Below, piece after piece: positions 4,355 to 53,623 of a stretch of DNA of 64,000 nucleotides. Each line of letters begins with the position of its first letter. The first letter of the stretch is position 1. This DNA is from Akkermansia sp. (lineage in GTDB: Bacteria > Verrucomicrobiota > Verrucomicrobiia > Verrucomicrobiales > Akkermansiaceae): NCBI GenBank assembly GCA_024405435.1, contig JAKSOU010000004.1, positions 576 to 64,575 of the forward strand, given 5' to 3'. Both the position numbers and the translations under genes were made by a program. The notes under the pieces were generated by a model. The model was not told the origin of the DNA. It searched no databases and was given only the letters and a program-made list of their open reading frames with translations.

Positions 4355-6100
4355 ATGGCACAGCACAAGGACGACAAGTACGCAGACGAACCGACGCAGG
4401 TTCGCAGCATCATCAAGCAGCTCAACAACGACAAGCCCTCCAAGGTCAAATCCAAAGAGGTCGTCATTCGGGCGGACGGCACCAAGGTCGTCCGCGTCAC
4501 CAAGAAGCGCAGGGTGATGCTTTCCGAATCCGACAAGAAGCGCAAGGGGCGCAAGCAGTTCCTGCTGGTGCTGCTGGCTATCTTCCTGCTCTCTGTGGTG
4601 GGGCTGGGCGTCTTCTTTGTCCGCATGGCGAGCATGACGGGAGAATCCTACGTGAACAAGCAGGCCGCGGAGCTGAAGGAGGTTTGGGGCGCAAGCGATA
4701 TGCGCGTGGTGGGCAGCGGCGTGAGCGGAAACGGCTTCCACCTGGATTCCCTGGTGGTCACCTTCCCGGAATCCTCCATGGTGGAGCGCGTGGAAATCAA
4801 CGGCATTGAGGCGGAGCTGGATTCCTCCACCTTCTTCTCCGGCCACCTCACAGGCGACCTCATCCGCGCCAAGCGGATATTCATCCGCATGCGCGAGGGT
4901 GCCAAGAACCTTTCCTTCCCCCTCCGCCACGGGGACGACCTGTGGTTCTTCCGCCGCGTGGAGTGCGCCGATTTCAACCTCTGCTTCGGGGAAGGGGAGA
5001 ACTCCCCCGTTTCCATTGAGCACAGCTACGCCTACATGTACTACCCCGACAACGCCTACCGCGACGAGTGCGTGTTCTGCCTGAAGGACGGCGTGGTCAA
5101 GATGTCCGGCTGGAAGAAAATCCATATCACCAACGGCAAGTTCAACGTTTCCAAGGTGGCTATCGAGGATTTCGCGCTGGAGGGCACCACGGACGCCGTG
5201 GGCGCCGGCAACACCATGGAATCTGCCGTCACCAGGCTCGCCATCTACGGCAGCATCCTGGACCAGGCTCCCCTGGCGGGCCCGTACACCTTTGATTCCG
5301 ACAACATGCCGCTGACGGAGTTCACCGATGGCCGTTTCCAGTTCTTCATGGCGGCCAAGACGCGCTCCGTTCCGCAGGCCAAGGAGAAGTCCAAGGCTCT
5401 TGTCACGCTGCCTTTCAACCACAACAAACCCCAGTTCCGCGGCGATTTCCCCGTCAAGCAGCTCAGCATCATGGAAATCCCCGCCGTCTTCAAGCTCATT
5501 GAGCATATCGAGCCGGTGCGCCGCAAGACCTACACCCCGCCCACCATTCACGAGGCCCTGATTCAGCTGGACCACGTGGACGATTCCATCATCGCCCGCA
5601 TCGAGGAAGGCCAGGCCGTGGAGCGCGACACCATTGAAATCCGCTGCGACCTCAGCGTGGATGATGTCAACCAGCTCAAGGGCACCATGTCCTTCGGCCT
5701 GCCGGCGGTGCTCACCCATGCGGAGTATCCGGACGGCATGGCGGACCCCATCCTGCAGGAGACGGACGGTATGGCGTGGCTCACCGCCCAGGTGAGCGGC
5801 CCCGCCAACCACCCGCAGGATGACAGCGACATCCTGGAGGCCCGCGCGGCGGAGGCCCGCAAGAGCCGCCCCGAACGGATTCCCTTCGAGCGTATCGACG
5901 TGGACCGCCTGGCCGAGAGGATGCGCCAGGCCACAGAGGAGCGCGACGTGCGCCCGCAGCCGGAGAACAACAAGGATTTTGACCTGGACAAGCGCAACCG
6001 CGACAACCCCTTTGGGTCCGGGGCGGATGAGAAGCAGAAGGCCCCGACCATAGACGATTCCGCGAGTGACATTTTCAACAACGAGGTCTCTCCGTTCTAA
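4355..6100 (+). CDS. Membrane-anchored hypothetical protein (possibly AsmA-like)
   Basis: 581-aa ORF with typical codon usage, a basic N-terminus, one TM helix (FLLVLLAIFLLSVVGLGVFFV) and a beta-rich extracytoplasmic part. AsmA similarity is inference only. Confidence 0.7.
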   Translation: MAQHKDDKYADEPTQVRSIIKQLNNDKPSKVKSKEVVIRADGTKVVRVTKKRRVMLSESDKKRKGRKQFLLVLLAIFLLSVVGLGVFFVRMASMTGESYVNKQAAELKEVWGASDMRVVGSGVSGNGFHLDSLVVTFPESSMVERVEINGIEAELDSSTFFSGHLTGDLIRAKRIFIRMREGAKNLSFPLRHGDDLWFFRRVECADFNLCFGEGENSPVSIEHSYAYMYYPDNAYRDECVFCLKDGVVKMSGWKKIHITNGKFNVSKVAIEDFALEGTTDAVGAGNTMESAVTRLAIYGSILDQAPLAGPYTFDSDNMPLTEFTDGRFQFFMAAKTRSVPQAKEKSKALVTLPFNHNKPQFRGDFPVKQLSIMEIPAVFKLIEHIEPVRRKTYTPPTIHEALIQLDHVDDSIIARIEEGQAVERDTIEIRCDLSVDDVNQLKGTMSFGLPAVLTHAEYPDGMADPILQETDGMAWLTAQVSGPANHPQDDSDILEARAAEARKSRPERIPFERIDVDRLAERMRQATEERDVRPQPENNKDFDLDKRNRDNPFGSGADEKQKAPTIDDSASDIFNNEVSPF

Positions 6101-43353: not shown

Positions 43354-45246
43354 CTACTTGGCGGGATAGATGTTGATTTCCGCGGCGGAGGAACCGGAGC
43401 CCTCGATGGAGCGGGTGGCGGTGAAGCGGAAGAAGCGGGCATCCACGGGGGAGAAGTCCACGCGCTGCTCGATGGGGTTGGCGCGCAGGTTGCCGAACTC
43501 GCCCTCGCCCACCTTCTGCCACGCCTTGCCGTCCTTGCTCACCTCGAAGGTGTAGCGGTCCGTCATGTCCTGCACGGAGCCGTCCTGGCGCGGCGTGTAG
43601 GAGAACGCGGCAATCTTTTGCCTCTGCCCCATGTCCACCGTGATGGATGCCGGGCACTTGTCGGAATGCCAGAGGGTGTCCTCCTTGCCGTCGATGGCGG
43701 CGGCGCCCTTCTTGCTCGTCCAGGAGCCCTTGGCCAGCCCGGTGTCCTGCACCGCGGGCGCGGTCACGGACGAGATGTCCGGCATCTTCAGCAGGGAGAG
43801 CTCGCTGATGCAGGGGCAGGCGCGGCTCTTGGTGATGCGCAGGCGCACCTTGTCCGTGGTGGTGGGTTGCACTCGGCGCATCACCTGGTTGCCGATGCTC
43901 TTGCCGGCGGCGTCCTCAGCGTCGATGGTCTGCCACTGTCCGTCCACCCAGGCGTCGATGGCGAAGTTCTGCACGCGCTGGCCCAGGCGGATTTGCTCGC
44001 GCACGCGCACCACGTCGAACGTGGCGGGCTTCTTGAGCTGCAGCTCCACCTCGCCCGTGGTCTCCTTGTCGTCCGTGCACCAGTAGGACTCGATGTCGCC
44101 GTCCGTCAGCTTCTCCGGGCCGAAGTTCTTGGTGTCCCCGCCGCGCACGTTGCTAGCCTTGGCCTTGGCTCCCTTCGCAAAGTCGTTGGCCAGCAGCTGG
44201 CGGCGTGCCTCGCCGAAGCGCAGCAGCGCATCCACGTCCGCCGGGTCCAGCTGGCCGTCGCGGTTGGCCGCCACGTTCAGGATGAGGTTGGCGCCGTAGC
44301 CCACGCTCTTCATGTACACGTCGTCCATGAGCTTCTGCGGGCTCTTCACGCGGCCCTCCTGGTTGGGGTGCCAGAACCAGCCGGAGCCGTTGATGGTGGT
44401 GTCAGCCTCCAGCGCGAGCCACTTCTCGGTCTTGTCCGGCATGTCGGCCAGGGTTCTGGGATGTCGCTCGTTGGCGGCGTTGGCGGTGTTGATGACGTTC
44501 CAGTAGGGGTACTTCACGAAGCCTTGCTCGGAGCCGCCCCAGGAGGCGTCGCCGCGGCCGGCGGCGCCCCAGATGATGCAGTTGGGCTGCAGCTTGCGGA
44601 TGAGCTTCACCACGTTGGTGAAGTTGTAGTAGTCGTCCGCCTTGCCGATGTTGCGCTTCTCCCTGGCGCCGCCGTAGAAGCCATCGCCGCCGTTGGCGCC
44701 GTCGAACCAAATCTCGAAGATGTTGCCGTACTTGGTGAGCAGTTCCTCAATCTGCTTGTAGTAGACCTTGAGGTAGCCGGGCTTGCCGTACTCCGCGCAG
44801 TTGCGGTCCCACGGGGAGAGGTACACGCCGAAGCGCATGCCGTGGTTCTTGCAGGCGGTGGAGAACTCGCGCGCCACATCGCCCTTGCCCTTCTTCCACG
44901 GGGATTGTGAGATGTTGTGCTTGGTGGCCTTGGTCTGCCACAGGCAGAAGCCGTCGTGGTGCTTGGCGGTGTAGATCATGCCCTTCATGCCCGCCTGCTT
45001 GAAGGTGGAGACAATCTTGTCCGCGTCGAACTGTGTGGGGTTGAACATGGCGGGGTCCTCGTCGCCGTAGCCCCATTCCTTGTTGGTGAAGGTGTTGAGG
45101 CCGAAGTGAACGAAGGCGTACCATTCCATGCGCTGCCACTGGATTTGCTGTTCCGTGGGGACGGCACCGCAGGGTGCGGGGGGACTGGCGGCCCCGGCGG
45201 TGGAAGCCAGCGCCAGCAGGGAGGTGATGATGTGTTGCGTTTTCAT
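43354..45246 (-). CDS. Alpha-L-fucosidase (GH29) with F5/8-type C-terminal domains
   Basis: Signal peptide; FVHFGLNTF, AKHHDGF, YLSPWDRN, EIWFDGA. Confidence 0.93.
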   Translation of the reverse strand: MKTQHIITSLLALASTAGAASPPAPCGAVPTEQQIQWQRMEWYAFVHFGLNTFTNKEWGYGDEDPAMFNPTQFDADKIVSTFKQAGMKGMIYTAKHHDGFCLWQTKATKHNISQSPWKKGKGDVAREFSTACKNHGMRFGVYLSPWDRNCAEYGKPGYLKVYYKQIEELLTKYGNIFEIWFDGANGGDGFYGGAREKRNIGKADDYYNFTNVVKLIRKLQPNCIIWGAAGRGDASWGGSEQGFVKYPYWNVINTANAANERHPRTLADMPDKTEKWLALEADTTINGSGWFWHPNQEGRVKSPQKLMDDVYMKSVGYGANLILNVAANRDGQLDPADVDALLRFGEARRQLLANDFAKGAKAKASNVRGGDTKNFGPEKLTDGDIESYWCTDDKETTGEVELQLKKPATFDVVRVREQIRLGQRVQNFAIDAWVDGQWQTIDAEDAAGKSIGNQVMRRVQPTTTDKVRLRITKSRACPCISELSLLKMPDISSVTAPAVQDTGLAKGSWTSKKGAAAIDGKEDTLWHSDKCPASITVDMGQRQKIAAFSYTPRQDGSVQDMTDRYTFEVSKDGKAWQKVGEGEFGNLRANPIEQRVDFSPVDARFFRFTATRSIEGSGSSAAEINIYPAK

Positions 45247-47474
45247 AAGTCTAGCATGTCTCCGGCAAGCCCCTGCGCGTCTTCGTAGCGCAGGATGAAG
45301 AGTTCGCCCGTCTCCTTGAGCCTGCCGTAGAAGAAGGGGGTGTCTGATGTGTTGTCCCCCGGCACGATTTCAATCGTCCGGGTTTCCCGGTGAGTCTTTT
45401 GCCTGCCCTCGGCGGCGTGCAGCGGGTCCTCCTGCGCGGCGGAGAGCAGCTCCTCCGGCGTGGCCTCCGCGGTCTCGGCCTCCTGCTGTGCGCTGGCCGC
45501 CACGGCCTGCGCCGTCTCCGGCGCGTCCGGCAGCTCCAGCTCCACCGTCACGGTGAACACGGGCTTCTCCAGCGCCTTGAGCGCGTCCTCGTCCGTGCTG
45601 TCCAGCCACTGGGAGGCCTTGAGCTTCTGGAGGCTGCGCAGGTAGTATTCCGCGCGGTGAATGTTGATGTTGGCCGTCACGTCCTTCTCTCCCAGTTTGC
45701 CGGTCCAGGATTCGCCGATGTGGTCGTAGTCCAGCACGAGGGGTGCCTGCCTGTATCCGAGGGTGAGTCTGCGGACGGCGGCGAGGGGAATCGGCGTGAC
45801 GTTCTTGGATTTCCACTTGGCGGCGCGCAGGGAGATTAGGCGGGTGAACTTGGTGTTGAGGCGGAAGACGGAGGAGCCGCCCAGCTCCATGCCGAACCAG
45901 GCCTGCTTGCCGGACTTGGGGTCCGCGTGGCGGCCGATGAGGAAGGTGCGCGCCTCGCGGTCCTTCACCAGCGGCAGGTCGCAGCCGAAGATGACGGCGC
46001 GCACGTTGCACGGGTTGGGCAGCACGGAGAGCACGTAGTTGGGTGCGTCAAGCCCGTACTTGGCGGCCATGGCGCGCGTGTCCTCGCCGGGCGCGGCATC
46101 CGCCGCCACCTCGTCCACCGGGATGTCCCTCATGCCGTGCAGCAGGCTCACCGCCGCGTTGGTGTCGGCGGGCCTGTAGGGCTGGTCTCCCTCGGAGTAC
46201 ATCCACTCGTCGTTGATGCCGCCCTCCGTGTTGCCGGGTATCTTGACCAGGCGGATGGCATCTGCGGAGCGCATGGAGCGGATGGAGATGCGCGCCACGT
46301 CGTTGGCCGCCAGGTCGGAGAACTGGTGGGAGCGCAGCTGGTCCGCGGTGAGCTCCAGGTTGCGCGTGTACGCCGGGCGGTTGCCGGATTTGATCTGCCC
46401 CAGCACCTTCTCCGGCAGCAGGGGCAGCTCCAGGATGCCGCCCATCAGCGTGGCGTAGCTGCCGCCGCGCTCCACATCCGGCGCCGCCTGCAGCAGGAAC
46501 ACGGAATCGCGGTCCGGAACCTTCGCGTAGCGGTACGTGCGCTTGTCCTGCCCATCCTCGAATTCCGGGTACAGGTCAAGCATGATGGGCTGCGGGCCCC
46601 AGCTGCCGTGCAGCTCCACCCGCATTTCAGGCTTCTCCGCCAGCTTGGCATCCGCCGGGTTGAGCACGTGCCGCGCGCGCAGCCGCAGCAGATCCACCAG
46701 GAAGGCGTCCGCCTTCTCGCCGTCTCCCGCCGCCAGGAACGGCGCGGTCACCGCCCAGGCGGATTCCGCGCTCGCGCGCGAGAGGCGCACCTCTGGCTGC
46801 CCCTCCCGCCGCAGGGTGAAGCCCAGGATGCTGTCCGGGTCGAAGAGCAGGGGGTGCGGGTCCCGCAGCCCCTCCAGCCCCTGCTGGAAGATGGGCAGGA
46901 TGTTGCAGGTGACCACGTGGATGCGCTTGTCTCGCCCGTAGAAGTCGGTTCTCAGGTAGACGGTGGGGATGATGTCCTTCCCGTTGCCGGCATCCGCCAT
47001 CCAGGGTGAGGTGTTGCCCAGGGTGAAGCGCGCCACGGTGTGGCGCTTGCCCTTCGAGTGGGAGGGTGCTTTCAGCGTGATGCTGTGGGGGGAGGTCTCC
47101 ACGCCGTACTCGCGCATGTTCAGGCGGGTGGTGTTGTTGAGCGGCAGGGAATCCACCAGGCGCGTGTTGCCGGCGAACGCCAGGATGGCCTCCACCGCGC
47201 CGGTGGACATGCGGTCCCGGAACGGCTTCTCTATCCACCACACCCCGCCCGCATCCTTCTGGCACACGATTTCATCGTGCAGGTCGCGGATGCGTATCCA
47301 GTCCACATCGTCCAGTTGCGCCAGGCCGGCCTTGGTGAGCAGGGGCTCCCCAGGCTCGAAACGGTGCCAGCCCGTGATGCTCGACAAGTTGCCGTAGCGC
47401 ACCTCTTCCACCACCAGGGCAACGCAGAACGCGGCCAGGGCGGTCAGGATGGATGTTGTGAGGCTGCAGCGCAT
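45243..47474 (-). CDS. DUF4340 domain-containing protein
   Basis: N-terminal TM; repeated DUF4340-like segments (EYGVETSPHSITL, KYGLDAPNYVL); follows the GldG-like gene. Confidence 0.75.
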   Translation of the reverse strand: MRCSLTTSILTALAAFCVALVVEEVRYGNLSSITGWHRFEPGEPLLTKAGLAQLDDVDWIRIRDLHDEIVCQKDAGGVWWIEKPFRDRMSTGAVEAILAFAGNTRLVDSLPLNNTTRLNMREYGVETSPHSITLKAPSHSKGKRHTVARFTLGNTSPWMADAGNGKDIIPTVYLRTDFYGRDKRIHVVTCNILPIFQQGLEGLRDPHPLLFDPDSILGFTLRREGQPEVRLSRASAESAWAVTAPFLAAGDGEKADAFLVDLLRLRARHVLNPADAKLAEKPEMRVELHGSWGPQPIMLDLYPEFEDGQDKRTYRYAKVPDRDSVFLLQAAPDVERGGSYATLMGGILELPLLPEKVLGQIKSGNRPAYTRNLELTADQLRSHQFSDLAANDVARISIRSMRSADAIRLVKIPGNTEGGINDEWMYSEGDQPYRPADTNAAVSLLHGMRDIPVDEVAADAAPGEDTRAMAAKYGLDAPNYVLSVLPNPCNVRAVIFGCDLPLVKDREARTFLIGRHADPKSGKQAWFGMELGGSSVFRLNTKFTRLISLRAAKWKSKNVTPIPLAAVRRLTLGYRQAPLVLDYDHIGESWTGKLGEKDVTANINIHRAEYYLRSLQKLKASQWLDSTDEDALKALEKPVFTVTVELELPDAPETAQAVAASAQQEAETAEATPEELLSAAQEDPLHAAEGRQKTHRETRTIEIVPGDNTSDTPFFYGRLKETGELFILRYEDAQGLAGDMLDL

Positions 47475-47489
47475 AGGGATTTTCTCGGT

Positions 47490-49019
47490 TTAGTGGCGGC
47501 GGGCGTTCCAGATGAGAAGGGCCACCAGCAGGGCCAGCAGCGGCATCACCAGCAGGGTGAGCGTCTCCAGCATGCTGCGCGAGTGCCGGTTCAGGTCGAT
47601 CTTCACCGTCATGTCGTGGTTGGCGCTCTTGCCGGCGTACTCCGGGCGCGCGCACATCCACGACCACAGGGAGTACAGGTAGTCGCGCTGCTCGGCGCGG
47701 GAGTTCTCGCGCAGCAGGATATCCGTGCTGCCCAGCACCATCAGGGTGGACATGTCGTTCGGGTATTTCGGGTTGCCGCGGGTTACGGCGGCGGCCAGGC
47801 AGAGCGGGCCCTCGCGGTCCTCGTGCGGCGTGAACGTGGGGTTCAGCTCAAGCCGCGTCTCCCCGTAGTACTCGTCCGTGGTCGTCAGCAGCGGGAACAC
47901 CGTCAGCTTGCGCATGCTCGCATCGCTCTCGTCCACGTGCTCCAGAGTGAGGGACATGCACTGGCCCTCCACGTGGGTGGTGCCGTTCCAGAAGGATTTG
48001 GTGCAGTTGAGCCCGCGGGGGAAGACGGCGGAGATGTCGAAGTACGCGCGGCTGCGGTCGCGCAGCAGCACGCGGTCCGCGTTGGGGCGCACGCCCTGCT
48101 CGCGCAGGAAGCGGTACAGGTACGGCAGCTTGTCCGGGTTGGCGGGGTTGAGCGCCACGAACACGGAGTTGCGGCCCTCGCGCTCCCAGAACTCGCGCAC
48201 CACGTCCATCTCCTTCTCCGTGAAATCCGTTGTGGGGGAGACAATCAGCAGGCCCTCCGCATCCTCCGGCAGCTTCTCCGCGTTCGCCACGTCCACCCAG
48301 GAGAGCTGGATGTTCAGGGAGGTCGTGATGTCGCCGATGAGCTCCAGCAGCTTCTGGTCGTCGCGCGAAACGCCGCCCTTGCCCTCCACGGCGTACATGT
48401 GGCGCATCTGCCCCTCCACGGCCTCGGTGAGCGCGCCGCACACCACCTCGTCCATCACCAGCGCCACCGCGCGCCGCGTCTCGTCCGGCAGGGTCTCGTA
48501 CTTCACGAACGCGGTGCCGGGGCACATGCGCACGTGCTGGCGGTCGCCCTGCTGCTCCTCGAAGGTCTTGATGGGCACGGTGCAGTCCTTGCGGGCGTCC
48601 ACCACGCAGAGGTTCTGGTTGAAGTCGATGCCGTAGATTTGGGAAATCTCGCGTGCGCGGTTGGGCTGGCGCATGGGGTCGAAATACTCCACCTCCACCT
48701 TGCCGTTGCCGTAGCGCACGTACTCCTCCAGCAGGTAGCGCATGCGGGCGTAGTTGGGCGTGGAGCGCTTGAAGGCGAAGATGATGCGCACGGGCGTCTC
48801 GCGCTGCTGGATGCGCTCGCTCTGCAGCACGTTGCGCGTGCGCTCGGAGATGGAGAAGCGCTGCTCCTCGCCCGTCAGGTCCTTGCGGCCGTACTCGTGG
48901 CAGCCGATGTAGTTGCAGGCCAGCACAATCACAGCCAGCAGGAGGAGGTTGAGCCAGGCGAGCGGGTTGCCCTTGGGTCTGCGGGCATCCGGATGCCCCG
49001 TGTAGTCGTTCTTGCTCAT
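47490..49019 (-). CDS. GldG-like ABC auxiliary component
   Basis: KDLT...FSISERT, EYFDP, LLIVSPTTDF, C-terminal TM. Confidence 0.82.
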   Translation of the reverse strand: MSKNDYTGHPDARRPKGNPLAWLNLLLLAVIVLACNYIGCHEYGRKDLTGEEQRFSISERTRNVLQSERIQQRETPVRIIFAFKRSTPNYARMRYLLEEYVRYGNGKVEVEYFDPMRQPNRAREISQIYGIDFNQNLCVVDARKDCTVPIKTFEEQQGDRQHVRMCPGTAFVKYETLPDETRRAVALVMDEVVCGALTEAVEGQMRHMYAVEGKGGVSRDDQKLLELIGDITTSLNIQLSWVDVANAEKLPEDAEGLLIVSPTTDFTEKEMDVVREFWEREGRNSVFVALNPANPDKLPYLYRFLREQGVRPNADRVLLRDRSRAYFDISAVFPRGLNCTKSFWNGTTHVEGQCMSLTLEHVDESDASMRKLTVFPLLTTTDEYYGETRLELNPTFTPHEDREGPLCLAAAVTRGNPKYPNDMSTLMVLGSTDILLRENSRAEQRDYLYSLWSWMCARPEYAGKSANHDMTVKIDLNRHSRSMLETLTLLVMPLLALLVALLIWNARRH

Positions 49020-49047
49020 GGAAAAATGAGGAAAAGGGGTTATGCGT

Positions 49048-49875
49048 TTATCGGTGCCAGCGGCGGTAGTCCACAATGCGCTTGGTGAGCGCCAGCGTGA
49101 ACACGGTCAGGGTGAGGTACAGCACCACGGGGCGCGTGTCCAGCAGACCGCGCGAGAACGCGTCCACCTGCTCCGTGCAGGAGAGGTAGTGGAACGCGGG
49201 CGCGGCGGGGAACTCGCCCCACAGCTCCGTCACGCGGCCCAGGAAGTAGAACATGATCATGAAGCAGGTGGTGATGATACCCGCGATGATCTGGCTGCGC
49301 GTGAGCGCGGAGCACAGCACGCCCAGCGCAATGAAGAACGCGCCCGCCAGCGCCAGGATGCAGTACGGGCCCACCCAGTCCGCCAGCGTGTAGGTGATGC
49401 AGCCCTCCGGCGTGATGCCGTAGCGCACGCTCGTGTACCAGTTGCCGATCTCGCTCATCCACGGATACAGGTACATCGGCAGCCACAGCAGCAGGTAGAA
49501 CACGTACGCCGCGAAATACTTGCCCAGCACGATCTGCCCGGTGGTCACGGGCGCGGTCAGCAGGCCCTCCAGCGTGCCCTGCCGCTCCTCGTCCGCGAAC
49601 GTGCGCATGGTGATGAGCGGGAAGATGAAGATGAAGTAGAACCAGAAGTTCACGTTGCCCAGCATGTAGTACATCACGCTCTCCCCCGTGGCCTTCGTCA
49701 TGGTTTGCAGCACAGCCTGCAGCCAGAAGCCCTGCAGTGCCATGGTGCATCCCAGGATGACCCAGCCGAACGGCGTGCACAGGTAGGAGCGCAGCTCCTT
49801 GAAGAAGATGGTGAGGAACGAGCGCAGGCTGCTGCGCGATCGCTTGATGTCGGTGGATGGTGTGGTTTCTGCCAT
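49048..49875 (-). CDS. ABC-2 permease (GldF-like)
   Basis: KELRSY, ITMRTFADEERQGTLEGLLTAPV, RGLLDTR. Confidence 0.9.
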   Translation of the reverse strand: MAETTPSTDIKRSRSSLRSFLTIFFKELRSYLCTPFGWVILGCTMALQGFWLQAVLQTMTKATGESVMYYMLGNVNFWFYFIFIFPLITMRTFADEERQGTLEGLLTAPVTTGQIVLGKYFAAYVFYLLLWLPMYLYPWMSEIGNWYTSVRYGITPEGCITYTLADWVGPYCILALAGAFFIALGVLCSALTRSQIIAGIITTCFMIMFYFLGRVTELWGEFPAAPAFHYLSCTEQVDAFSRGLLDTRPVVLYLTLTVFTLALTKRIVDYRRWHR

Positions 49876-49902
49876 GACGGAAGGGGAAGGGGTGAATATG
49901 CG

Positions 49903-50844
49903 TTAGTCTCGGCGGGTCATTTCCACGAACACGTCCTCCAGGCTCGGGATGTGGCGGTACAGGTGCCGCAGCACGCCGCTGTGCGCCGCCACCACAGCCG
50001 CCGCCTTCTCCCGCGTGTCCGTGCCCGGCTCCGCGCGCAGCACCAGCCGGTGCCAGCCGTCGCCGCGGTCGTCCTCCACCATCACCTTCATGATGGGCTC
50101 GAACGCCTCCAGCTCCTGCACCACGGGGTCAAGCTCGCCCTTGAACTCCAGGGAGACGCGGCCGGCGGCGCGCAGCCCGGCGGTGAGCCTGGCGGGGGTG
50201 TCCGCGGCCTTGATGTTGCCCTGGTCGATGATGATAACCTTGTTGCAGATCATCTCCACCTCGCTGAGAATGTGGGTGGAGAGGATGACGGTGTGCTCCT
50301 CCGCCAGCGAGCGTATCAGCTCGCGTATCTGGCGGATCTGGTTCGGGTCCAGCCCGTTCGTCGGCTCGTCCAGGATCAGCAGGTCCGGGTTGCCCAGCAG
50401 CGCGTCTGCCAGGCCCGTGCGCTGGCGGTATCCCTTGGAGAGCGTGCTGATCATGTTCTTGCGCTTGGGCTCCAGGCCGCAGCGGTCGATGGCCCAGCCC
50501 ACCTGCTGGCGCACGCTGGACCCGCAGATGCCCTTGAGCTTGGCGCGGTACTCCAGGTAGTCGTACACCCGCATGTCCTCATACAGCGGCACGTTCTCCG
50601 GCATGTAGCCCAGGTGGCGGCGTGCCTCCAGCGGGTGGTCCAGGATATCGTATCCGGCAATGCTGGCCGTTCCGCTGCTGGGCGGCAGGTAGCCCGTGAG
50701 CATCTTCATCGTCGTGGTCTTCCCGGCCCCGTTCGGACCCAAAAATCCCACAATCTCGCCCTTGTCGATGGAGAAGTCCGCGTCCCGTACCGCCACAAAG
50801 CGGCCGAAACTCTTGTGCAAGTGCTGCGCTGTCACCATACTCAT
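49903..50844 (-). CDS. ABC transporter ATP-binding protein (GldA-like)
   Basis: GPNGAGKTT, LSKGYRQR, LDEPTNGLDP, STHILSE. Confidence 0.93.
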   Translation of the reverse strand: MSMVTAQHLHKSFGRFVAVRDADFSIDKGEIVGFLGPNGAGKTTTMKMLTGYLPPSSGTASIAGYDILDHPLEARRHLGYMPENVPLYEDMRVYDYLEYRAKLKGICGSSVRQQVGWAIDRCGLEPKRKNMISTLSKGYRQRTGLADALLGNPDLLILDEPTNGLDPNQIRQIRELIRSLAEEHTVILSTHILSEVEMICNKVIIIDQGNIKAADTPARLTAGLRAAGRVSLEFKGELDPVVQELEAFEPIMKVMVEDDRGDGWHRLVLRAEPGTDTREKAAAVVAAHSGVLRHLYRHIPSLEDVFVEMTRRD

Positions 50845-50885: not shown

Positions 50886-50912
50886 GAAAAATCACCGCAC
50901 GCCGCGTGCGGT
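50886..50912 (-). terminator. Intrinsic terminator after rSAM gene
   Basis: ACCGCACG-CGG-CGTGCGGT followed by GATTTTT. Confidence 0.7.
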
Positions 50913-50914
50913 TT

Positions 50915-50934
50915 TCCTAATCCTAATCCTGATT
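50915..50934 (-). repeat. AGGATT array overlapping rSAM stop codon
   Basis: Minus strand TCAGGATTAGGATTAGGAAA. Confidence 0.75.
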
Positions 50935-52044
50935 CCCGCCGTAGAACTCCCGCATGAACAGCGCGTTCCTTTCCGCGTACAGCGCCTCCGCCAGCTCGTC
51001 CGCCAGGCGGATGAACACCCGCTCCGCGGAGCAGAGGAAAGGCGACACGCGGTCGATATGCCCGCTGGCGGCGTAGTTGGAGCAGCCGCAGCCGTTCATG
51101 CAGCGGGAGCGCAGGGCGCAGACCTTGCATTCCGGCGTGGAGTTGCCGCGAGTGGCAATAAGGTAGTTCTGGCGGGCGCGGTTGATGCCCTCGCGCACGT
51201 TGCCGAAGTTGAAAAAGTCGGAGTTGCCCTCGCCCACCAGGCGGGAGCAGGGGAAGAAGTTGCCCTCCGCGCTCACGGCGATTTCGCGTTCGCCGATGCG
51301 GCATTGCGCGCAGGTGTCGCCGTTTAGGTGCGTGCGGATCTTGTCCTCGAAATTCTCCAGCTTCACGGGCCGCACCCCGCCGCGGTAGGATTCCAGCACC
51401 ATCTCTTTCACCCGCTCCAGCTGCGCGCAGAAGACATCGAACTGCTCATCCGTCCACTCGTGCCAGTAGTCCAGGTTCAGGCCGAAGCCGTGGTCGTAGT
51501 GTTCATGCAGCCAGGCCACGCCCTCCGCCAGCAGGTGGCAGTTGGCGGCGTTCACCACGCACACCGCCTTGCTGCGCAGGTTCGGGTACTTGCGGATTTC
51601 CTGCAGCGCGGGCTGCAGGGCGGCGTGGCTGCCCGTGCCGTCCGCAAAGCGGCGGTTGATGTCGTGCATGGCGGGCGACCCGTCGACCGATACGCCCACC
51701 AGGAAATCCCGCTCCGCCATCCATGCCAGCTTCTCCGGCGTGAGCAGGGTGCAGTTGGTGGTGATGCCGTAGCGCGGCGGCATGCACATCTCGCCGCGCC
51801 GCTCCTCCATGTACGCGTGGCAGCGCTGCAGCAGCTCCCACTCCAGCAGCGGTTCCCCGCCGAAAAACGACACATCGAGCGGCAGCTCCAGGCGCTTGGC
51901 CTCCGCCACGCACAAATCCATCGCGGCACGCGCCGTCTCCCAGCTCATGCAAGCCGCATGCTTGCGCCCCGCGTAGCAGTACCGGCAGCGCAGGTTGCAG
52001 TTGTGCGTGAGACACAGGGTCAGCTCTAGAGGCTGTATCAACAC
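50923..52044 (-). CDS. Radical SAM enzyme with SPASM domain (anSME / peptide-maturase-like)
   Basis: CNLRCRYC, FFGGEPLL, TTNCTLL, SVDG; SPASM Cys pattern CAQC..G..AVSAEGNFFPC and CKVC...RC..GCGC...C. Start GTG 52044 or TTG 52041. Confidence 0.92.
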   Translation of the reverse strand: MLIQPLELTLCLTHNCNLRCRYCYAGRKHAACMSWETARAAMDLCVAEAKRLELPLDVSFFGGEPLLEWELLQRCHAYMEERRGEMCMPPRYGITTNCTLLTPEKLAWMAERDFLVGVSVDGSPAMHDINRRFADGTGSHAALQPALQEIRKYPNLRSKAVCVVNAANCHLLAEGVAWLHEHYDHGFGLNLDYWHEWTDEQFDVFCAQLERVKEMVLESYRGGVRPVKLENFEDKIRTHLNGDTCAQCRIGEREIAVSAEGNFFPCSRLVGEGNSDFFNFGNVREGINRARQNYLIATRGNSTPECKVCALRSRCMNGCGCSNYAASGHIDRVSPFLCSAERVFIRLADELAEALYAERNALFMREFYGGNQD

Positions 52045-52084
52045 ATCCCCAATCCCAAATCTTAAAATCCTCAATCCTAAATCA
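52045..52084 (-). repeat. Degenerate (A/G)GGATT array between lipoprotein and rSAM genes
   Basis: Minus strand GATTTAGGATTGAGGATTTTAAGATTTGGGATTGGGGAT. Confidence 0.75.
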
Positions 52085-52098
52085 CACCGCGCTAGTGT

Positions 52099-52455
52099 TC
52101 ATTGCTTGGGCGGTGCCACCTTCTTTCTGCCGCACACTCTCTGCGGGGGCCGCACGGGCTTGGTGGGGGGCACCACGCTTCCCATCACCGGTTGCTGTGA
52201 CCGCTGATCCTTCCCGACTTCCTTGGATTCCACCTTGGGCTTTTTGCCGACCACTCCCTGCGGGGGCCGTTTTCCCATCACCGGTTGCTGTGACCGCTGA
52301 TCCTTCCCGACTTCCTTGGATTCCACCTTGGGCTTGACCTTGCCCGTGAGGGTCTGCGGCGCCTCGCAGGCGGGCAGGGCCAGCATGGCTGCCGCCACCG
52401 CCGCAATCACGGGGTAGCACGGTGTGTGCGTCTTGTTTTCTGCTTGGATTTTCAT
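52099..52455 (-). CDS. Small putative lipoprotein with repeated QxxxG motifs; candidate rSAM substrate
   Basis: 118 aa; hydrophobic stretch ending in lipobox-like LPAC; Lys/Pro/Gln-rich body with five [PQ]Qx[VL]xG[KSR] motifs; has its own promoter. Confidence 0.8.
   Translation of the reverse strand: MKIQAENKTHTPCYPVIAAVAAAMLALPACEAPQTLTGKVKPKVESKEVGKDQRSQQPVMGKRPPQGVVGKKPKVESKEVGKDQRSQQPVMGSVVPPTKPVRPPQRVCGRKKVAPPKQ
52179..52335 (-). repeat. Two exact 64-bp direct repeats (period 93 bp) inside the lipoprotein gene
   Basis: 52179-52242 equals 52272-52335, encoding KPKVESKEVGKDQRSQQPVMG twice. Confidence 0.95.
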
Positions 52456-52465
52456 GATGGTATGG

Positions 52466-52495
52466 ATTGTACTCTACACCCCTTTAAGCGCGCAA
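52466..52495 (-). promoter_or_regulatory. Promoter of lipoprotein-rSAM unit
   Basis: TTGCGC-18-TACAAT; ATG lies 10 nt downstream; A/T tracts upstream (UP-like). Confidence 0.6.
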
Positions 52496-52573: not shown

Positions 52574-52604
52574 AAAAAAGCGCCCCGCCGAGACGGCGGG
52601 GCGC
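52574..52604 (-). terminator. Intrinsic terminator after galE
   Basis: GCGCCCCGCCG-TCT-CGGCGGGGCGC followed by T6. Confidence 0.88.
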
Positions 52605-52633: not shown

Positions 52634-53623
52634 TCAATAATGGCCGCCGTGGGGGCCGGTCATCCACTTCCAGGCCGTGGCCACGATGTCGTGCGCGTCC
52701 TGGTACTTGGGCACCCAGCCCAGGATTTCCTTGGCCTTGCGGGCGTCGGCAATCAGGCGGGGCGGGTCGCCCTCGCGGCGGTCGCCGTAGGTCACGGGCG
52801 CCTTCTTGCCGGTCACCTTTTCCGCGGCATCGATGATTTCCTTGACGGAAAGGCCCTTGCCGGTGCCCAGGTTGAACCAGTTGGTCTCGCCGCCCTTCAT
52901 CAGGTAGTCCAGCGCGCGCAGGTGCGCGTCCGCCAGGTCGTCCACGTGGATGTAGTCGCGGATGCATGTGCCGTCGGGGGTGTCGTAGTCGGTGCCGAAG
53001 ACGGTGATGCCGGGGCGCTCGCCCTTGATGGCCTGCAGGATGACGGGGATGAGGTGGGATTCTGGCTCGTGGTCCTCGCCGATGAGGCCGTCGGGCGCGC
53101 AGCCGGAGGCGTTGAAGTAGCGGAGGAAGACGCTCTTGAGTCCGTAGGCGCGGTCGCAGTCCTTGCAAACCTTCTCCAGCATGAACTTGGAGCCGCCGTA
53201 GGGGTTGATGGGGTCCTGCTTCTCGGTTTCGGGGATGGGGACCTGGGTGGGCACGCCGTAGGTGGCGCAGGTGGAGGAGAACACGAACCTCTTGGTGCCG
53301 GCCAGCATCATGGCCTTCAGCAGCGTGAGCGGCTTGGCGATGTTGTTCTCATAGTACTTCAGCGGGTCGGTCACGGACTCGCCCACTTGGATGAACGCGG
53401 CGAAGTGCACCACGGCGTCGAACTTGCCGTTGAGCAGCAGGGGGTAGACCACGGTGGGGTCGCCCAAATCGCCCTTGACGAGCTTGACCTCCTTGTCGAC
53501 GATGGCGCCGGGGTGGCCGTAGACCATGCTGTCCAGCACGGTGACGTCAGCGCCGGCCTTGACGAGCTGGCGCACAGTGTGCGAGCCGATATAGCCGGCT
53601 CCGCCTGTTACGAGTACTTTCAT
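52634..53623 (-). CDS. galE: UDP-glucose 4-epimerase
   Basis: TGGAGYIGSH, HFAA, FSSTCATYG, YGGSK, RYFNASG, RDYIHVDDL. Confidence 0.96.
   Translation of the reverse strand: MKVLVTGGAGYIGSHTVRQLVKAGADVTVLDSMVYGHPGAIVDKEVKLVKGDLGDPTVVYPLLLNGKFDAVVHFAAFIQVGESVTDPLKYYENNIAKPLTLLKAMMLAGTKRFVFSSTCATYGVPTQVPIPETEKQDPINPYGGSKFMLEKVCKDCDRAYGLKSVFLRYFNASGCAPDGLIGEDHEPESHLIPVILQAIKGERPGITVFGTDYDTPDGTCIRDYIHVDDLADAHLRALDYLMKGGETNWFNLGTGKGLSVKEIIDAAEKVTGKKAPVTYGDRREGDPPRLIADARKAKEILGWVPKYQDAHDIVATAWKWMTGPHGGHY

Follow-up and report, generated by a model that had tools for sequence, protein, structure and literature searches.

Is the small, lipoprotein-like protein encoded directly ahead of an enzyme of the radical S-adenosylmethionine (SAM) type the substrate of that enzyme, and if so, where on the chain would the enzyme act? 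The question is raised by a two-gene unit on the minus strand of a 64,000-nucleotide (nt) stretch of Akkermansia sp. DNA (assembly GCA_024405435.1, contig JAKSOU010000004.1, positions 576 to 64,575; hereafter the window, in whose numbering coordinates are given). There, a terminator scan and the list of open reading frames (ORFs) show two intrinsic terminators enclosing exactly two genes and nothing else, one for a 118-residue protein and one for a radical SAM enzyme with a SPASM region. An initial sequence-only reading proposed that the enzyme modifies this protein at each of five Q-x-x-x-G sites. We consider it rather probable that the unit encodes an enzyme together with its substrate. What would be new, and is largely supported by the sequence comparisons below, is a radical SAM/SPASM peptide maturase with a precursor that would be routed through the lipoprotein pathway.

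An enzyme of probable peptide-maturase type

The enzyme gene starts at GTG 52044 or TTG 52041, giving 372-373 residues; a further TTG at 52074 (383 residues) is disfavoured because homologs are about 372 residues long. Its assignment as a radical SAM enzyme with a complete set of SPASM cysteines was correct: PF04055 matches at 45.6 bits (cut-off 29.5), the CX3CX2C motif is in place, and eight SPASM cysteines are conserved across 20 homologs down to 33% identity, while the SPASM profile PF13186 itself gives 17.9 bits, under its cut-off of 21.5. The best NCBIfam match is the PapB ranthipeptide maturase profile (NF047865), at 199.4 bits over the whole profile against a cut-off of 340. The nif11, CcpM, QhpD, CXXX-repeat and SCIFF maturase profiles score 132-156 bits, and TIGR03942, the profile for anaerobic sulfatase-maturating enzymes (anSME family), about 90 bits (90.4, 89.8) against a cut-off of 349, below six peptide-maturase families. 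Ten homologs at 35-47% identity likewise fall under every NCBIfam cut-off, with PapB scores of 185-230 bits.

By sequence, the nearest solved structure is that of CteB (E 2e-30), with ChlB matched at E 1e-9. The alignment begins at CteB residue 99, so that the N-terminal RiPP recognition element (RRE; RiPP, ribosomally synthesised and post-translationally modified peptide) of CteB is absent here. RRE-less homologs of the enzyme number 315 representatives at E <= 1e-30. An AlphaFold2 (AF2) model of the enzyme has a predicted local distance difference test score (pLDDT) of 91.9, and its fold matches CteB with a template-modelling (TM) score of about 0.81, anSMEcpe with 0.75-0.78 and ChlB with 0.78-0.79, the overall range for CteB and anSMEcpe being 0.75-0.82. 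The family has eight conserved SPASM cysteines against seven in the aligned stretch of CteB, the extra one being C320. Auxiliary cluster I may then have Cys for all its ligands and no call for a thiolate from the substrate, an arrangement that would fit substrates without Cys. The enzyme, cytoplasmic in our reading, has no signal peptide.

A tag ahead of a probable export signal

The small ORF has a unique in-frame ATG, with a stop codon six codons upstream. Its product was described from the letters as a hydrophobic helix, the lipobox-like LPAC and a Lys/Pro/Gln-rich body, and these are present in that order: a 15-residue n-region (MKIQAENKTHTPCYP), a 12-residue hydrophobic stretch, LPAC at residues 27-30 of the 118, and a basic body that holds a single Cys in its mature part, for a net charge of +14. 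The AF2 single-sequence model places the sole helix at residues 14-25 and gives the body no secondary structure, which at a pLDDT of about 60 is weak evidence. No Pfam or NCBIfam family matches the protein. A hidden Markov model (HMM) built from 24 members finds one member only in this genome, at 72 bits against 20 bits for the next ORF.

Lipoprotein signal peptides are about 20 residues long. In 29 of 30 family members a lipobox-like Cys lies at position 27-38, and there is therefore extra sequence ahead of the export signal. This N-terminal tag is the best conserved part of the partners, as a leader would be, in agreement with the suggestion that the K-I...P-x-Y-P segment is a recognition leader. 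M1 and I3 are invariant in the family alignment and P15 is found in at least 90% of members; the Tyr is swapped for Leu, Ile or Phe in many, leaving only Pro15 nearly invariant. Strains whose enzymes are 93-98% identical have tags identical at 28-29 of 30-31 positions, with bodies 46-87% identical and many insertions and deletions. A conserved tag followed by a variable body is, judging from these alignments, the pattern of a leader with a variable core. Across the 30 members the net charge runs from -15 to +15; 23 have no Cys beyond the lipobox and 13 have no aromatic residue in the mature part.

The lipobox itself is common and not universal. One Akkermansia member and some of the distant partners lack its Cys. 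In the former, found at loci L007/L030 with an enzyme of 77% identity, tag (MDIFPQNKTRIPAYP) and hydrophobic core are retained, and the whole chain is free of Cys (…LAMPAAATDNQ); instead of a lipoprotein one would expect a substrate of signal peptidase I or a protein anchored in the membrane.

Pairing within and beyond Akkermansia

A survey of 151 Akkermansia species genomes found the enzyme in 97, often in two to four copies or fragments, and the small-protein family in 95. Both occur in 89 genomes, the enzyme only in 8, the small protein only in 6 and neither in 48. Close relatives (enzymes 93-98% identical) keep the small ORF, and homologs at 77%, 61%, 58%, 47% and 41% identity keep a small lipoprotein-like ORF in unrelated neighbourhoods: the unit adjoins galE here, ankyrin/DUF4236 genes at L008, an RNase J-type gene at L010 and MarR/MatE genes at L016. 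At many loci there are two or three tandem small ORFs, the last of which sometimes overlaps the enzyme start. Several seeming orphan partners lie at contig ends, one of them beside an enzyme fragment. Homologs inspected for upstream small ORFs with the tag thus yield a partner that recurs in varied contexts, as had been anticipated, and of the best 150 small-protein hits, 94 are no more than 2 kb from an enzyme hit. In different lineages the proposed precursor gene is both placed beside the enzyme gene and inherited with it.

The same arrangement extends to distant homologs (28-38% identity), collected on metagenome contigs by a scan with the enzyme alignment and two contig look-ups; the partnered ones have a G+C content of about 0.43 to 0.62, with L053 visibly AT-rich. 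Most of the ORFs upstream share the tag MKIxP...YPT (MKIIPEIDEKKGFYPTLKEY, MKFKISPQKKGNDYPTKSEY, MDIKKVDEAAPVAYPTFDEF, MKVEPILKYSLPKYPQIHEF, MKIEKK...), followed by a hydrophobic segment and usually a lipobox. Repeats are present in most of these partners, among them ALNGEVAPV, ILMGDIAPIYP, EPLSGDVAEP, PLAGDPIV and EPVLAGDIIIP, and what they have in common with the Akkermansia motif is hydrophobic-x-Gly, next to it an acidic or small residue and, at most a few positions on, a Pro. Judged by tag, architecture and motif, the unit is one case of a widespread enzyme/partner family. In L062 and L065-L067, the upstream partner is 170-245 residues long and has a folded domain after the motif, which suggests that the enzyme family may also act on full-size proteins. 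A segment of the form PP-hydrophobic-hydrophobic-S/A-E-x-E-A-L-x-I-I...E-F/Y...K-x-G is found in L062, L065, L066 and L067; in L066 it stands directly after a hydrophobic-x-Gly...Pro site.

A glycine-centred motif and its DNA repeats

The body carries five motifs at the positions first assigned to them (Table 1), and the spacing behind them is a real property of the family: the 30 members together contain 66 instances of QxxxG, where shuffles that preserve composition give 14.0 +/- 3.4, whereas other Q-to-G spacings occur 6 to 25 times, enrichment being confined to QxxxG. The Akkermansia logo reads P-Q-x-[L/V]-x-G-x-V-P. What did not hold is the view of Gln and Gly as the invariant pair: the Gln at -4 is conserved only within Akkermansia, while distant partners keep the hydrophobic-x-Gly followed by Pro. 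The C-terminal version represented by motif 5, [PT]-Q-R-[LVM]-x-G-[RK]-[KR], is common to several ORFs directly upstream of the enzyme in other species.

Nor are the five motifs five independent sites, since an exact 64-nt direct repeat, seen by a direct-repeat search and missed by Tandem Repeats Finder (TRF), generates two of them. A second, older repeat, 87% identical (52123-52152 and 52240-52269), underlies another. Close strains have 3 to 5 motifs in proteins of 91 to 129 residues, with length changes always in frame, and motif number is therefore a fast-changing property rather than a fixed five-site design.

Genomic setting of the unit

The terminator scan and the ORFs bear out a self-contained unit parted from galE by a strong terminator (Table 1). 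The proposed promoter fared less well: the sequence TTGCGC-N18-TACAAT is readable where it was placed, while the consensus promoter scan of the unit reported none, this candidate failing its criteria because its -35 matches at only 3/6 positions. The candidate -10 ends 10 nt ahead of the ATG, so that the mRNA, if the promoter is real, would be nearly leaderless. Between the two terminators there is no RRE protein, protease or exporter, as the sequence-only reading had stated, and a search across contexts for a conserved third gene of these kinds (exporter, protease, RRE protein) found none common to them. Nor, as also stated, is there a sulfatase gene nearby: the contig has none.

Table 1. Features of the two-gene unit and its flanks in window coordinates
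Feature	Coordinates	Strand	Remarks
GalE-type epimerase, upstream of unit	52634-53623	-	PF01370
Transaldolase, further gene upstream of unit			PF00923
Intrinsic terminator after galE	52580..52604	-	11 G-C pairs, 3-nt loop, T-run; parts unit from upstream genes
Promoter-like TTGCGC-N18-TACAAT	52466..52495	-	Candidate, read from the letters
Small precursor-like ORF	52099..52455	-	118 residues
N-terminal tag MKIQAENKTHTPCYP	52411..52455	-	Residues 1-15, ahead of hydrophobic core; best conserved part of family
h-region VIAAVAAAMLAL and lipobox-like LPAC	52366..52410	-	Residues 16-30; Cys30
Motif 1, PQTLTGK	52339..52359	-	Residues 33-39
Motif 2, QQPVMGK	52270..52290	-	Residues 56-62; inside copy 2 of 64-nt repeat
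Motif 3, PQGVVGK	52243..52263	-	Residues 65-71
Motif 4, QQPVMGS	52177..52197	-	Residues 87-93; mostly in copy 1 (52179-52242), repeat starting two bases into motif
Motif 5, PQRVCGR	52126..52146	-	Residues 104-110
Recent tandem duplication	52179..52335		Two identical 64-nt copies, 52179-52242 and 52272-52335; period 93 nt = 31 codons; copy number varies by strain
Intergenic spacer	52042..52098	-	54-57 nt; imperfect GGATT-type heptamer repeats
Radical SAM/SPASM enzyme	50923..52044	-	Start 52044 or 52041; no RRE domain
CX3CX2C (C15, C19, C22)	51976..51999	-	SAM-binding [4Fe-4S] cluster; invariant columns in 20 homologs
SPASM region	51031..51303	-	C247, C265, C305, C308, C314, C318, C320, C337
Intrinsic terminator after enzyme gene	50894..50912	-
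ABC-2 transporter operon, downstream of second terminator	45243-50844	-

The downstream operon has four genes, for an ATP-binding cassette (ABC) ATPase, an ABC-2 permease, an ABC_transp_aux/DUF7088 protein and a DUF4340 protein, which may be akin to gliding-type GldA/F/G transporters. It is not kept next to the unit in other strains, even close relatives. The DNA comes from an Akkermansia that has not been cultured; its nearest contigs belong to metagenome-assembled genomes of Akkermansia sp., one of which was obtained from horse faeces.

On either side of the enzyme gene, at 52042-52098 and 50913-50940, lie short tandem repeats of the AGGATT / GGGATTT type (complement AAATCC). They were rejected as borders of a cassette: at least three such units in a row, typified by AGGATTAAGATTAGGATTAG, occur at 56 places in the 2.5-Mb genome, and the repeats are found only in the closest clade and not around the cassette in other species. 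At L006 the repeat lies about 30 nt after the enzyme stop, one relative has about nine AAATCCC units, and in some strains the repeat that lies upstream of the enzyme runs in the opposite orientation.

Elsewhere in the genome, a second enzyme paralog is a 384-residue open frame (C86:3392-4492, plus strand), divergent from a gene judged by eye to be a probable sugar kinase. Just downstream of it and convergent (C86:4531-4959 and 4935-5267, minus strand) are two small lipoprotein-like ORFs with repeated CxxCxGxG zinc-finger-type motifs.

Comparison with known systems

Several characterised systems share parts of this arrangement. PapB/PapA (freyrasin) pairs a radical SAM/SPASM enzyme with a precursor that has several short repeated motifs of i to i+4 spacing; in PapB precursors, Cys-Xn-Asp/Glu motifs are joined as thioethers (PMC9413430). 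The precursor here differs in having an export/lipoprotein signal and no conserved Cys or acidic pair, and membership of the PapB family was rejected, with the enzyme far under the 340-bit cut-off, most partners free of mature Cys and the L007 partner free of Cys altogether. CteB, a SCIFF thioether synthase (PDB 5WGG/5WHY), has the same SPASM twin-cluster architecture and is the top match in both sequence and fold; it differs from our enzyme in its N-terminal RRE and in its SPASM cysteine count. The cyclophane synthase ChlB (PDB 9GM3/9GMC) is, like the present enzyme, an RRE-less SPASM protein of about 375 residues with a similar fold. Its sequence similarity is low, and it makes three-residue cyclophanes on aromatic residues, which 13 of the 30 partners here lack in the mature part. 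ChlB was crystallised with the leader region of its precursor (PDB 9GM3; reference 52 in PMC12912966), which shows that an enzyme lacking an RRE can bind a leader directly.

[quoted passage not shown] The likeness lies in the proposed use of a cytoplasmic enzyme on a precursor with a lipoprotein signal. The MNIO (DUF692) acts on Cys motifs, whereas the unit has a radical SAM/SPASM enzyme, a Gly-centred motif and an extra tag before the signal peptide; radical SAM enzymes get no mention in the DAG-RiPP paper (PMC13056109). Our literature search for a radical SAM system with a lipoprotein precursor, or for an Akkermansia radical SAM RiPP, found no description of either.

The sequence-only reading had pointed to a catalogued Bacteroidetes pair of radical SAM enzyme and lipoprotein. 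This is TIGR04133 (rSAM_w_lipo) with TIGR04134 (lipo_with_rSAM), a computationally defined system only; the two-gene layout, a lipoprotein gene beside a radical SAM/SPASM gene, is the same and the families are not. The enzyme scores 25.3 bits against the TIGR04133 cut-off of 425, and TIGR04134 (cut-off 39.8) finds nothing in the genome, with E values of up to 10 admitted, and matches 0 of the 24 family members. By these scores the unit represents a different enzyme clade with a different partner family. The best TIGR04133 scores in the genome, 94 and 80 bits and thus below the threshold, belong to two tandem radical SAM genes (460 and 641 residues) at C91:7733-9444 on the plus strand.

The partners also narrow the chemistry. 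With mature Cys missing from most and aromatic residues from many, thioether formation, cyclophane formation and YG-splicing cannot be the general reaction, and the earlier remark that Cys-, aromatic- and YG-dependent chemistries do not map onto this protein is confirmed by partner composition. The sacti-/ranthipeptide and QhpD-type thioethers, cyclophanes, Lys-Trp and Glu-Tyr bonds and Tyr-Gly splicing were each rejected as the family chemistry, the residues they need being missing. On sequence grounds the reactions still to be considered would be an epimerisation at the aliphatic -2 residue, or the abstraction of hydrogen from the invariant Gly (or a neighbour) with subsequent cross-linking or oxidation.

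Proposed mechanism and alternatives

We envision that the 118-residue protein would be synthesised in the cytoplasm as a prolipoprotein whose n-region is unusually long, and that the RRE-less enzyme would bind its tag, MKIxP...YP, directly. A 5'-deoxyadenosyl radical would then serve to modify the repeated P-Q-x-[V/L]-x-G sites of the disordered body. Sec would export the modified chain while it is still unfolded, and acylation at Cys30 and cutting by signal peptidase II would leave it anchored in a membrane. From the sequences we infer the modification itself, the tag as recognition element, the Gly-centred motif as site and the lipidation. Relative to the sequence-only reading, the core of a maturase with a lipoprotein-type precursor and an N-terminal tag is thus largely supported, while the five sites, the role of Gln, the link to the catalogued pair and the reach of the lipobox have been corrected.

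Several observations weigh against this scheme. The genome has two enzyme paralogs, and the second, on C86 and 48% identical, is without a partner; an adjacent partner is also missing at L003/L027, where the enzyme is 96% identical, and at L031 and L042. Other partner genes truly stand alone, in genomes with the enzyme elsewhere. At L040 the enzyme-adjacent partner has the tag and no QxxxG. The lipobox here has an atypical Pro at -2, and the L007 partner, having no Cys, means that lipidation is not universal. Finally, the co-occurrence of the two families (Fisher 3e-24) is calculated with shared ancestry ignored, and adjacency in different contexts is therefore the stronger argument.

Among the other explanations, the one that survives best is that the enzyme targets the tag or signal peptide itself, for instance at Tyr-Pro, with the body serving as a surface domain and the product possibly being the fragment released by signal peptidase II. 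The tag is, after all, the most conserved part; it is left facing the cytoplasm, the enzyme's own compartment, and it alone is common to some partners with folded domains or without Gly repeats (L055, L040). We nevertheless regard this as unlikely. The Tyr is too often replaced by Leu, Ile or Phe, only Pro15 being nearly constant; the Gly-centred motif is enriched and recurs in distant partners, which is unexplained if the body is irrelevant; and in known RiPPs a conserved N-terminal segment is usually leader, not core.

Considerably less probable is that the enzyme is the organism's anSME, or acts on a protein encoded elsewhere, with the lipoprotein a mere neighbour. An anSME acts on an unfolded protein before export, and anSMEcpe resembles our enzyme as an RRE-less SPASM protein of about 370 residues with a similar fold (TM 0.75-0.78). 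The genome holds about seven sulfatase genes and no anSME above the TIGR03942 cut-off, and the one FGE-sulfatase domain hit (FGE, formylglycine-generating enzyme) is weak and partial (37 bits, in a 784-residue frame on C100); with sulfatases and no clear maturase, one of the two paralogs could in principle mature sulfatases, and some enzyme copies have no partner gene. Against this, the enzyme's TIGR03942 score of 90 bits against 349 ranks below those of six peptide-maturase families, and the partner, which has no C/S-x-P-x-R site, travels with the enzyme through changing contexts and adjoins its distant homologs. Nine high-quality Akkermansia genomes without an enzyme homolog carry 2-17 sulfatase genes each, though no search of them for an anSME or FGE was made, and the contig of the unit has no sulfatase. 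Low HMM scores and the sulfatase-rich genomes without the enzyme led us to reject an anSME identity, and the clustering with bona fide anSMEs that would have spoken against a new system was not seen in either scores or distribution. Published work on an Akkermansia anSME concerns a different, 1,412-bp gene (PMC8920140).

The small protein might instead be an exported accessory, with the enzyme's substrate elsewhere: it could for example serve as a membrane anchor, confer immunity, or be a surface protein that is co-regulated and subject to diversifying selection. Fast evolution of the body by repeat gain and loss, with a charge of either sign as in surface proteins, would suit such a role, as would the stand-alone copies. 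We give it marginally less credence still than an anSME: an exported protein cannot partner a cytoplasmic enzyme, the conserved tag before the signal would have no obvious role, and no alternative substrate gene is conserved beside the enzyme. That the small ORF is not a gene at all, its motifs being a by-product of low-complexity DNA repeats, is scarcely credible. In its favour, some of the repeat structure arose by a DNA duplication of very recent date, the protein matches no Pfam or NCBIfam family, and the ORF is at times overlooked by gene callers or replaced by a call on the other strand. Yet frame, start and signal-peptide architecture persist in over 90 genomes, every change of length among close strains is in frame, and the HMM separates it from the next best ORF of this genome by 72 bits to 20.

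Implications

Radical SAM/SPASM enzymes are a main source of new peptide chemistry. To our knowledge, almost all of those characterised target side chains, whether Cys, aromatic or acidic, in small peptides that are secreted. The conserved aliphatic-x-Gly site proposed here lies in a probably disordered, lipoprotein-like chain, mostly without Cys and often without aromatic residues, and any modification of it would therefore probably extend the scope of reactions. If our reading of the unit as a maturase with its lipoprotein-type substrate is true, the idea, proven of late, of RiPPs made through the lipoprotein pathway would extend from MNIO to radical SAM enzymes.

More tentatively, and with the balance of probability tilted the other way, the unit may belong to a branch of lipoprotein-pathway RiPPs that relies on radical SAM enzymes and is found in bacteria of very different kinds; there, a tag-reading, RRE-less SPASM enzyme would carry out a reaction new to its class at hydrophobic-x-Gly. 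Within such a branch, the enzyme might abstract hydrogen from the Gly alpha-carbon, with a Gln-Gly cross-link forming next; another possibility would be oxidative backbone cleavage at the x-G-K/R-K/R sites of the basic Akkermansia branch, which resemble the Gly-dibasic amidation signal of animal peptide hormones. Were this broader branch real, a bacterium of the gut mucus would display on its surface multiply modified peptides, membrane-anchored or released. Among uncultured Akkermansia of animal guts the family is frequent, being present in about two thirds of the species genomes and often in several copies, and the fast diversification of the proposed substrate bodies, which flip charge between lineages, suggests that they act at the cell surface, within the mucus habitat.

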